Positions 30,551 to 32,799 of a DNA stretch of 64,000 bases are shown in pieces. The stretch's first letter is position 1. Each line of letters starts with the position of its first letter. This DNA comes from Clostridium sp. CAG:628 (GTDB lineage: Bacteria > Bacillota_I > Bacilli_A > RF39 > UBA660): NCBI GenBank assembly GCA_000438415.1, contig FR902233.1, forward strand, positions 2,366 to 66,365, in the 5' to 3' direction. The position numbers and the translations under genes are program-made. The notes under the pieces were generated by a model that saw only the letters and a list, made by a program, of their open reading frames with translations, ran no database searches and had not been told where the DNA came from.

Positions 30551-30576
30551 ATAAAAGCTCAATTAATGAGCTTTAA
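30551..30576 (-). terminator. attenuator-like hairpin between precursor peptide ORF and E1-like gene
   Basis: In minus orientation, AAAGCTCA-TTAAT-TGAGCTTT followed by a T-rich tract, immediately after the peptide stop codon. Confidence 0.4.
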
Positions 30577-30642
30577 TTAACAGTGTTGGTCTACATGACA
30601 AGAAAATTTTGCAACTGTTACTTTTTTTACGTTAATTTTCAT
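30577..30642 (-). CDS. candidate RiPP precursor peptide, 21 aa (MKINVKKVTVAKFSCHVDQHC)
   Basis: ATG at 30642 with a GGAGG RBS (8-nt spacer) and a TAA stop at 30577-30579. It sits directly upstream of the RRE-E1 gene with a hairpin between them. It is below the ORF-track size cut-off. Confidence 0.4.
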   Translation of the reverse strand: MKINVKKVTVAKFSCHVDQHC

Positions 30643-30683
30643 ATAATCTACCTCCTACCAACTGAAGTCAAATCACTTCTTGA

Positions 30684-30747
30684 AAAATATTATAGCACAC
30701 ATAACTTACTATGTAAATAGTAAGTTATTCATAGTTAGTAAGTTACG
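30684..30747 (-). promoter_or_regulatory. promoter (TTACAT-16-TGcTATAAT) overlapped by three AACTTACTA half-sites (perfect 10-4-10 palindrome 30703-30726 plus direct repeat 30736-30745)
   Basis: AACTTACTAT-GTAA-ATAGTAAGTT is centred on the -35, and TAGTAAGTTA recurs 19 bp away. The -10 shares the GTGTGCTATAAT core with the two downstream palindromic promoters. Confidence 0.4.
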
Positions 30748-31866: not shown

Positions 31867-32799
31867 CTATTCAATATACATTATATCTTTATAATTTTTA
31901 GGAAATCCCATTTTCTCTATTACACTACCTATATTAATACTTTTTAATTTACCATTTAATGTATCTAATTCATAATTTATTTCATTCATCATCATCTTAA
32001 AATCAACTTTAGTAAGTAATCTCTTTAAAATAATAATTAGTGCAAAAATATCATTTTTACCATAAATATACCCATCTTCATCCTTATCTATGTTTAGTAT
32101 ATTATGATACTTAGTATCGTTAATAACTCTCTGAGTAAAATGATCAAACACTATATCCTCATGCGCACATAAATTTCTATAATTAGAAAGTATTGATAAA
32201 TACACTTCAAAATCTTCTGGTTCTATATCATATATTTTAGCTATTTCTTCTCTATCTTTATCTTTTAAAATACTAAACATTTCACTCATTAAACCAAAAC
32301 TAATGACTTTAACACCTATCCATAAAGGAATATATCCGTAGTTATCCATATAATGACTAGTCGCTCCATGTTGTCTTCCATTAATTCTAAGTTGTCTTTT
32401 TATCTTTCTAATTAAATCACTTATTTGTCTACTCTTTTCTCTATCGTTATCAAAGTTTTTAGCATTCAAATAATTTTTCTCTTTAAATCCATAATTCTTA
32501 CTCATAACATAACTAAATATAGACTTATAGTTATTTTCAACAATTAATATATTCTTAAAAATAATATTTCTAAACATTCTATCAAAAACAAATAAACTAT
32601 AAATCTCTTCAAAAGTAGTACCACTTACAAACTTTCTAGAACCATCATGTTTCAAGAAAACATGCCTATACCCCATTATAAAGAAATAATTTTCTCTTAA
32701 AAGAACTTCCTTAGTATAATCTTCATCTCTAATAACAAGTCCCTTATCTTTTAATATTTCAATTTGTTCATCTAATGTTTTAAATACTTTAGCTGTCAA
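31867..32799 (-). CDS. Abi_2 family abortive-infection protein (AbiD/AbiF-like)
   Basis: The N-terminus FKTLDEQIEILKDKGLVIRDEDYTKEVLLRENYF matches the characteristic Abi_2 (AbiD/F) start, and the protein is about 310 aa. Confidence 0.6.
   Translation of the reverse strand: MTAKVFKTLDEQIEILKDKGLVIRDEDYTKEVLLRENYFFIMGYRHVFLKHDGSRKFVSGTTFEEIYSLFVFDRMFRNIIFKNILIVENNYKSIFSYVMSKNYGFKEKNYLNAKNFDNDREKSRQISDLIRKIKRQLRINGRQHGATSHYMDNYGYIPLWIGVKVISFGLMSEMFSILKDKDREEIAKIYDIEPEDFEVYLSILSNYRNLCAHEDIVFDHFTQRVINDTKYHNILNIDKDEDGYIYGKNDIFALIIILKRLLTKVDFKMMMNEINYELDTLNGKLKSINIGSVIEKMGFPKNYKDIMYIE

Follow-up and report, generated by a model that had tools for sequence, protein, structure and literature searches.

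On the minus strand of the 64-kb stretch of DNA analysed here (hereafter the window; GC 26%), a gene of 21 codons followed by TAA (30577..30642) encodes the precursor peptide MKINVKKVTVAKFSCHVDQHC, its ATG at 30642 being preceded, across an 8-nt spacer, by a GGAGG ribosome-binding site (RBS; 30651..30655). Upstream of this ORF and past the terminator-like hairpin of an HtrA-like gene, a sigma-70-type promoter (30689..30717, minus strand; TTTACA-17-TATAAT with an extended -10 TG) shows 11 of 12 consensus matches and is the top site between 29400 and 31000. Such translation signals are infrequent: GGAGG-N5-10-ATG sites number 18 in the whole 64-kb window, 11 of them opening ORFs of at least 100 aa, and among the four that open short ORFs only the peptide ORF exceeds six codons. 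A sequence-only reading of the same DNA had described the GGAGG, the 8-nt spacer, the ATG, the 21 codons, the TAA and a stem-loop after the stop, all of which are indeed seen on the minus strand. Two genes upstream of the peptide lies an Abi_2 (abortive-infection-like) gene (31867-32799, minus strand), found in the same position in a closely related locus (L001) with 81% identity.

Three bases past the peptide stop codon, the minus strand can form a hairpin with an 8-bp stem and a 5-nt loop (30554..30574; AAAGCUCA-UUAAU-UGAGCUUU). On its own the hairpin of the window is modest, with a dG of -11.9 and a z of -1.2 in a 71-nt context and a z of -2.8 when the intergenic spacer is folded alone; its tail UAUCAUUAU is weakly U-rich, and a consensus terminator scan gave no call there. 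Across the family, a hairpin was found between the peptide stop and the RBS of the downstream enzyme gene in all 28 loci folded (z -1.3 to -7.5), built from stems that are unrelated between loci (AAAGCUCA, UAGAGUUCAGC, AAAGUCCAGUUG, AAAGCCCAU or AGAGAGA) and in many cases flanked by A and U runs. These per-locus folds were preferred as evidence over an automated count of hairpins followed by a U-tract (17 of 39), which is an undercount because minimum-free-energy stems absorb the U run. No RNA family of Rfam matched between 20000 and 36000, which means that the hairpin belongs to no known riboswitch or leader class; its probable role is that of a leaky terminator or stabiliser setting the precursor-to-enzyme ratio. 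In the microcin C operon, a terminator between mccA and mccB leads to a surplus of precursor transcript (PMC4231749).

The enzyme gene (29509..30531, minus strand) encodes a 340-aa MccB-like RRE-E1, i.e. a ThiF-like adenylyltransferase (Pfam ThiF, 9.7e-44), composed of an N-terminal peptide-clamp/RRE domain (about residues 1-95) and an adenylation domain. The G-x-G-x-x-G motif and residues D150, D152, N158, R161, Q162, K174 and D214 vary little or not at all among 65 sequences, and C258, C261, C332 and C335 constitute a Zn-type tetrad, the four-Cys cluster being conserved in the family. Among PDB sequences MccB was the best match (1.7e-35), PaaA being far weaker (9e-14). An AlphaFold2 model built on 65 homologues (pLDDT 92.9, pTM 0.89) predicts strands at 2-32, helices at 36-78 and a strand at 82-84 in the N-terminal peptide-binding domain; in Foldseek searches this model aligned with MccB over its whole length, clamp included (TM 0.78, 353 columns), with PaaA next, while ThiF and MoeB matched the catalytic C-terminal domain only. 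Cys211, located near the Mg-binding Asp, was considered as a catalytic Cys and ruled out, the position being occupied by Ser in two family enzymes (L018, L149) and in MccB. Neither a rhodanese nor a sulfurtransferase is fused to the E1 or encoded beside it.

The E1 stop codon is overlapped by 11 nt (ATGATAGTTAA) by the ATG (29519) of a third gene (27924..29519, minus strand), which has a GAGGAG 10 nt upstream of its start and encodes a 531-aa ABC-F ATPase with two ABC_tran stretches, a linker of ~110 residues and no transmembrane domain. The NCBIfam model that fits it best, NF000355 ('ribosomal protection-like ABC-F family protein'), gives 360 bits for a cut-off of 380. In all seven ABC-F members scored, this model outscored the EttA, Uup and YbiT-type models by ~100 bits, and three of the seven (P0136, P0195 and L083) passed the cut-off. 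Compared by sequence with solved structures, the ABC-F matched YbiT and then VmlR, with YbiT, VmlR, Uup and EttA about equally far. At the level of sequence, the inclusion of the housekeeping YbiT among the nearest solved relatives and the NF000355 score below cut-off would count against an ARE reading of this protein. The linker also displays an invariant patch D-K-I-A-x3-A-x3-T (residues 280-293) behind a variable loop of ~15 residues, a candidate ribosome- or ligand-facing tip.

Downstream of the ABC-F, the minus strand carries genes for a PlsC-like acyltransferase with an extra C-terminal region of ~200 residues (26740-27864) and for a hybrid histidine kinase whose multi-TM N-terminal domain of ~220 residues has no Pfam match (24925-26682). 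No terminator-like site was detected downstream of the ABC-F before 24942-24916, and a promoter-like site lies inside this stretch at 27923-27894; both genes may be co-transcribed with the cassette. They were nevertheless rejected as core cluster genes, being found in some lineages only (the window, L002, L005, L018, L026, L100, L107, L136 and L140). Further on, a 643-aa ORF (22571-24502, minus strand) matched nothing in Pfam or NCBIfam at E<=0.01 and had no homologue in the flanks of any related locus.

Homologues of the E1 formed 114 clusters in the protein collection, and a scan of species-representative genomes retrieved 29 close E1 loci (46-96% identity), mostly in metagenome-assembled genomes of uncultured gut 'Bacilli' or 'Tenericutes'. 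In 24 of these 29 loci, a 21-codon ORF ending in K-F-[SAE]-C-H-V-D-Q-[NH]-C-stop lies 44-80 nt upstream of the E1; a 25th holds a truncated copy of the peptide, and the other four are without the E1 N-terminus or upstream DNA. A metagenome scan with the back-translated pattern for C-H-V-D-Q-x-C-stop matched 66 contigs, of which 40 presented a family-type leader, and wherever these 40 extended far enough downstream an E1 homologue followed the peptide. The remaining motif matches had neither a family-type leader nor an E1 match and represent chance background. Genome and metagenome contigs together yielded 53 distinct peptide/E1 pairs, and since the same ORF precedes E1 homologues in dozens of independent contigs, a chance ORF is excluded.

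Alignment of these peptides, whose length of 21 residues is nearly constant, distinguished a basic, variable leader (residues 1-14; M-K-[FI]-x-[VI]-[KR]-K-[VLI]-x3-[KQ]-F-x) from a core, C-H-V-D-Q-x-C (residues 15-21), directly followed by the stop codon. C15, H16, V17, D18, Q19, C21 and the adjoining stop are invariant across all family loci, while their codons are not: in the 25 genome loci, TGT/TGC were used 19:6 and 13:12 for the two cysteines, CAT/CAC 11:14, GTA/GTT 8:17 and GAC/GAT 4:21, with AAC/AAT also varying. Six invariant residues with synonymous third-position changes indicate that selection acts at the protein level rather than on DNA or RNA, and the ORF is almost certainly translated, under selection and paired with the E1. 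The proposal that this ORF is a precursor-type peptide paired with the RRE-E1 is thereby backed by its conservation beside E1 homologues, the terminal Cys being invariant down to E1 identities of 29%; the refuting outcome named by the sequence-only reading, a small ORF without conservation in related genomes, did not materialise. Position 20 alone varies within the core: it is Asn in 23 of the 25 genome loci and His in the window and L007; beyond this set, L083 is one of the other loci with His, and L079 has Arg. Even near-identical relatives of the window differ there (Asn in L001, His in L107 and L140). The Cys/His quartet (C-H-x3-H-C) earlier highlighted is present in the peptide of the window but is not supported as a family trait, its second His being mostly Asn in relatives and, since position 20 varies between Asn, His and Arg, not a conserved feature; the truly conserved core, C-H-V-D-Q-x-C, also comprises invariant Val, Asp and Gln.

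Two kinds of loci share this core. In type I loci, defined by an E1 at least 41% identical to that of the window, the ABC-F start overlaps the E1 stop, usually by 11-14 nt, wherever the downstream sequence is readable and non-chimeric, with L137 (coverage 1.8) as the one possible exception. There, positions 148-2572 in the orientation of the peptide hold the peptide, an intact E1, ~450 nt without ORF and then a DNA-methyltransferase-like fragment, which represents either a real exception or a low-coverage misassembly. A second contig (L094), in which the gene after the E1 (1236-1925) begins like the family ABC-F and goes on as an FtsE-like ATPase, is probably a low-coverage assembly chimera with its junction at the Walker A motif. 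The outer flanks of type I loci vary, with HtrA/Abi in the window, priA-def-fmt in L081 and a Bce-like transporter with rpsL/rpsG in L083, and the cassette itself contains neither an exporter nor a leader peptidase.

In type II loci, the same core stands behind other leaders (...AETTCHVDQRC, ...DTPLLCHVDQNC, ...AIAVTCHVDQNC and ...VSTTCHVDQHC) and precedes E1s that are 29-34% identical to that of the window, in DNA of 25-57% GC and without an ABC-F. The occurrence of the core with divergent E1s and no ABC-F indicates that the peptide tracks the E1 and not the ABC-F, and the core has stayed constant across a very broad evolutionary span. The neighbours of type II loci include an M50-like membrane protein and an alpha/beta hydrolase downstream in L079, and, in L149, an MFS transporter, an HTH protein and an M3 (PepF) peptidase upstream with an apparent ABC-exporter start downstream. 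At the upper end of the GC range, L150 (57%; positions 1-2822) carries MTTIEVKPVEEVSTTCHVDQHC, then a truncated E1 (231 aa) and a 588-aa ORF; its core shows that the motif exists outside low-GC Bacilli. Three clusters of relatives of the L149-type E1 were found, one of which (P0237) is without RRE and without peptide, and another of which (P0236, from L159) has no CHVDQ peptide upstream of its E1. The upstream region of L159 (598-728) holds only MKYISIKSQNNLKKTFY and a short overlapping ORF, and its E1 shares 40% identity with the L149 type and lies near the L123 type; its precursor may belong to a different class.

The ABC-F subfamily is wider than the E1 family, with more than 120 clusters at 56% identity or above. 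Among four sampled relatives, peptide and E1 were found upstream of the ABC-F in two (L155 and L156) and were absent from the other two (L151/152 and L153/154). These orphan ABC-Fs share 99.4% and 99.0% identity with the E1-linked proteins of L091 and L007, respectively, and do not form a separate clade. Furthermore, DNA homology between L007 and L153 starts within the last 70 nt of the E1 gene, leaving a 3' E1 remnant, which indicates that the orphan arose by loss or replacement of the peptide and E1 within a species. In L151 (2643-5108) and L152, the orphan ABC-F (99.4%) has an rRNA adenine dimethylase-family gene (PF00398) directly upstream and a TetR/MMPL pair downstream, and in L153 a kinase similar to the hybrid histidine kinase of the window and a GNAT acetyltransferase lie upstream. 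Other, more distant ABC-F paralogues also occur in these genomes, one of them in L096 (32% identity). Decay was likewise observed within the cassette itself. Two independent assemblies (L024 and L112) share a frameshift at E1 codon 103 with an intact ABC-F, L023 and L033 have lost the E1 clamp domain and the peptide with the ABC-F again intact, and L021 has lost the peptide leader and carries stops in both E1 and ABC-F. Decayed loci thus mostly drop the peptide/E1 and retain the ABC-F. Dispensable, polymorphic biosynthesis beside a retained ABC-F fits the look of a producer/immunity pair; the same pattern also fits a resident translation factor with an optional upstream module, as the ABC-F is wider than the E1 and two of four relatives are without E1, so that it could be a resident factor next to which the peptide and E1 were inserted once.

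A conserved peptide always found before the E1, and in gut bacteria before the ABC-F as well, probably denotes a family of modified peptides not described so far, with the ribosome as a possible site of action. That the E1 modifies the peptide appears highly probable. On balance, we favour the reading in which the peptide and the MccB-like RRE-E1 constitute an undescribed family of ThiF-like (TLAT) RiPPs, with ABC-F self-protection in type I loci. In the proposed sequence of events, the hairpin would provide surplus precursor transcript, as in mccA-mccB, and the peptide leader would dock onto the E1 clamp, after which the E1, using ATP, would adenylate one of the core carboxylates. The free alpha-carboxylate of Cys21 is the likeliest, with the side chain of Asp18 as the alternative. 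A core thiol would then capture the acyl-adenylate to give a thiolactone macrocycle (-18 Da), either an AIP-like ring of seven residues from Cys15-S to the C-terminus or a GrcB-like ring from Asp18 to Cys21. MccB offered thiols forms C-terminal thioesters (PMC13255007), and GrcB makes a thiolactone between Glu35 and Cys39 by thiol capture of the acyl-AMP (PMC12596934). The universal stop after Cys21 and the closeness to MccB favour activation of the Cys21 alpha-carboxylate, EnfB and IndF lending support by analogy only, and with that carboxylate activated Cys15 would be the obvious nucleophile. Whether the product carries a thioester ring at all appears evenly poised; in a rough split of outcomes, the ring from Cys15 to the C-terminus is a reasonable but tentative possibility, the ring from Asp18 to Cys21 a rather unlikely one, and the set of other outcomes (thiocarboxylate, nucleotidylation, imide or amidation, Cys beta-thiolactone) receives slightly less than an even share. 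As His, Val, Asp and Gln are also invariant, the ring residues would matter for a target or a metal and not for biosynthesis alone.

For the RF39-like gut Bacilli, the translationally coupled ARE-like ABC-F would shield the producer's ribosome, and in distant lineages exporters and peptidases would handle the same core in its place. Self-protection by the ABC-F against a ribosome-binding product is a credible suggestion, a little short of an even chance, and would imply that the product binds the ribosome. The full proposal, in which the cassette yields a small heptapeptide, thiolactone-cyclised or otherwise activated at its C-terminus, that would bind to the large ribosomal subunit and have the ABC-F as its dedicated immunity factor, is put forward more tentatively still. 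The lack of an exporter or leader peptidase in type I loci counts against this best explanation, and a core invariant across phyla is unusual for an antibiotic and would fit a cofactor or metal ligand as well.

The present system shares its enzyme architecture with the ThiF-like RiPP enzymes of characterised chemistry, MccB, PaaA, GrcB, EnfB and IndF (PMC12250964, PMC12596934, PMC12150305, PMC11256085). The closest parallel is microcin C, in which a very short precursor gene likewise lies directly upstream of a two-domain RRE-E1, with a hairpin or terminator between precursor and enzyme genes (PMC4231749) and a free precursor C-terminus in both systems, MccB being the best match of the E1 in sequence and fold. 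However, MccA ends in Asn, which its succinimide and N-P chemistry requires, whereas here an invariant Cys closes the peptide and the residue before it varies, Asn occupying this penultimate place in most loci and His or Arg in some, and never the terminus. The earlier statement that the peptide does not end in Asn as microcin C precursors do thus extends to all family loci, each with a terminal Cys, and without a terminal Asn the peptide is not a microcin C precursor. Furthermore, McC peptides are variable carriers whereas the heptapeptide core is here conserved except at position 20, and none of the microcin C accessory functions (MccC MFS, MccD/E, MccF or HIT-type) occurs in type I loci, which have an ABC-F instead.

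Enterofaecin (EnfA/EnfB) of enterococci also derives from a 21-residue precursor, through one-ATP activation of the C-terminal carboxylate (PMC11256085, PMC12250964), and its basic leader motif (V/I)RKA recalls the [VI][KR]K[VLI] found here, both minimal clusters being without a leader peptidase; the likeness to EnfB is taken from its published description. Its core is by contrast hydrophobic (WWIVI against CHVDQxC), and its partners are ABC transporters and regulators where an ABC-F is found here. The GRC system of Streptococcus pneumoniae (GrcA/GrcB) comes close in another respect, its precursor also ending in a Cys whose thiol is used in the GrcB thiolactone and also having a His just before an acidic residue (PMC12596934). 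That residue is a Glu at i-4 (Glu-x3-Cys) in GrcA, whereas an Asp at i-3 (Asp-x2-Cys) and a second invariant Cys are found here, and the radical-SAM enzymes (GrcC/D), standalone RRE and quorum-sensing regulators of GRC have no counterpart in the present cassette. The ABC-F itself resembles the ARE ABC-F genes of antibiotic producers (OleB, CarA, SrmB, TlrC, LmrC, VarM) in being a TMD-free double-ABC protein inside a biosynthetic operon, in having a ribosomal-protection model as its top match and in being retained when biosynthesis is lost; known ARE ABC-Fs guard against polyketide, lincosamide and streptogramin antibiotics, whereas protection is only presumed here. Finally, staphylococcal AIP (AgrD/AgrB) would share a Cys-to-C-terminus thiolactone on a short ribosomal peptide, although the AIP ring has five residues, is made by the AgrB protease and is strain-variable, as against an E1 and an invariant core in the present family. 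With EnfB and IndF acting on a C-terminal Ile and GrcA ending in Cys (PMC12250964, PMC12596934, PMC12150305), the sequence-only reading overstated its case in announcing a new substrate class, non-Asn precursors being already known. Neither this core sequence nor its ABC-F partner was found in the searchable literature, a genome-mining supplement contained no match to the core sequence, and no RiPP cluster with an ABC-F was found in the literature searched.

Among the other explanations weighed, the strongest, though unlikely, is that the E1-modified peptide serves inside the cell as a cofactor, metal-binding or sulfur-carrier (thiocarboxylate) peptide, its adjacency to the ABC-F being inherited synteny. 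The core is invariant across E1s of 29-99% identity and offers Cys, His, Asp and Cys, which are classic metal ligands, and thiocarboxylates are what ThiF/MoeB-type E1s produce. Type I loci, devoid of exporter and peptidase, also sit among housekeeping genes (priA/def/fmt, rpsL/rpsG), and ABC-F orthologues occur without an E1. These same orthologues nevertheless speak against such a role, for ABC-Fs that are 99% identical come with or without the peptide and E1, which are thus dispensable within a species. Nor does the absence of a fused or adjacent rhodanese or sulfurtransferase agree with a sulfur carrier, and the MFS transporter, putative ABC exporter and M3 and M50-like peptidases of distant clusters with the same core suggest secretion, while the E1/ABC-F overlap has been kept despite reshuffled flanks.

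Another reading makes the product an AIP-like thiolactone signal sensed by the neighbouring multi-TM hybrid histidine kinase, a quorum-sensing role that we regard as improbable. It draws on the presence of a hybrid histidine kinase no more than a few kb away in the window, L002, L005, L018, L026, L100, L107, L136 and L140 and next to the orphan ABC-F of L153, on the lack of a terminator-like site from the ABC-F to the kinase in the window and on the ties of several streptococcal TLAT RiPPs to quorum sensing (PMC12250964). Most loci are however without the kinase, the invariant core shows no diversification into pherotypes, and the universal coupling of type I loci to the ABC-F would be left unexplained. 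In a last alternative, to which we assign a very low probability, the ORF would mainly be a cis-acting leader or arrest peptide, and ribosomes stalling on it would, together with the hairpin, attenuate the E1/ABC-F operon in the manner of the upstream ORFs of resistance ABC-F genes; or else the ABC-F would be a dedicated factor for translating the peptide. A short ORF followed by a terminator-like hairpin does lie upstream of an ARE-like ABC-F, and leader-peptide attenuation is established for ARE ABC-F genes. Related work has been published (PMC8546547, PMC12421871). Against this stands the distribution of the peptide, which tracks the E1, occurs with divergent E1s without an ABC-F and is absent at orphan ABC-F loci; in addition, the E1 possesses an MccB-type peptide clamp, and the hairpin lies outside the ORF, so that an attenuator-type alternative pairing is not evident.

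A ThiF-like RiPP family with ABC-F self-protection in type I loci thus stays the reading that we prefer. New peptide chemistry is beginning to emerge from RRE-fused ThiF-like enzymes, of which only five reaction types have been characterised, and the family described here adds a precursor class defined by an invariant Cys/His/Asp/Cys heptapeptide with a mandatory C-terminal Cys. With a 21-residue peptide and a single 340-aa enzyme, its chemistry is suited to a simple two-component assay, and the constant coupling to the ABC-F gives a direct, testable hypothesis on the target. The family is found widely among uncultured Bacilli of human and animal guts whose genomes are very small. If the heptapeptide does bind the ribosome with the ABC-F as its immunity factor, it would provide the first case of a RiPP coupled to ribosome protection by an ABC-F, and its production by uncultured, genome-reduced Bacilli of the human gut would be polymorphic, with non-producers keeping the orphan ABC-F as immunity. 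Its product would then represent a natural ligand that may have shaped the evolution of ARE ABC-F proteins in the gut.
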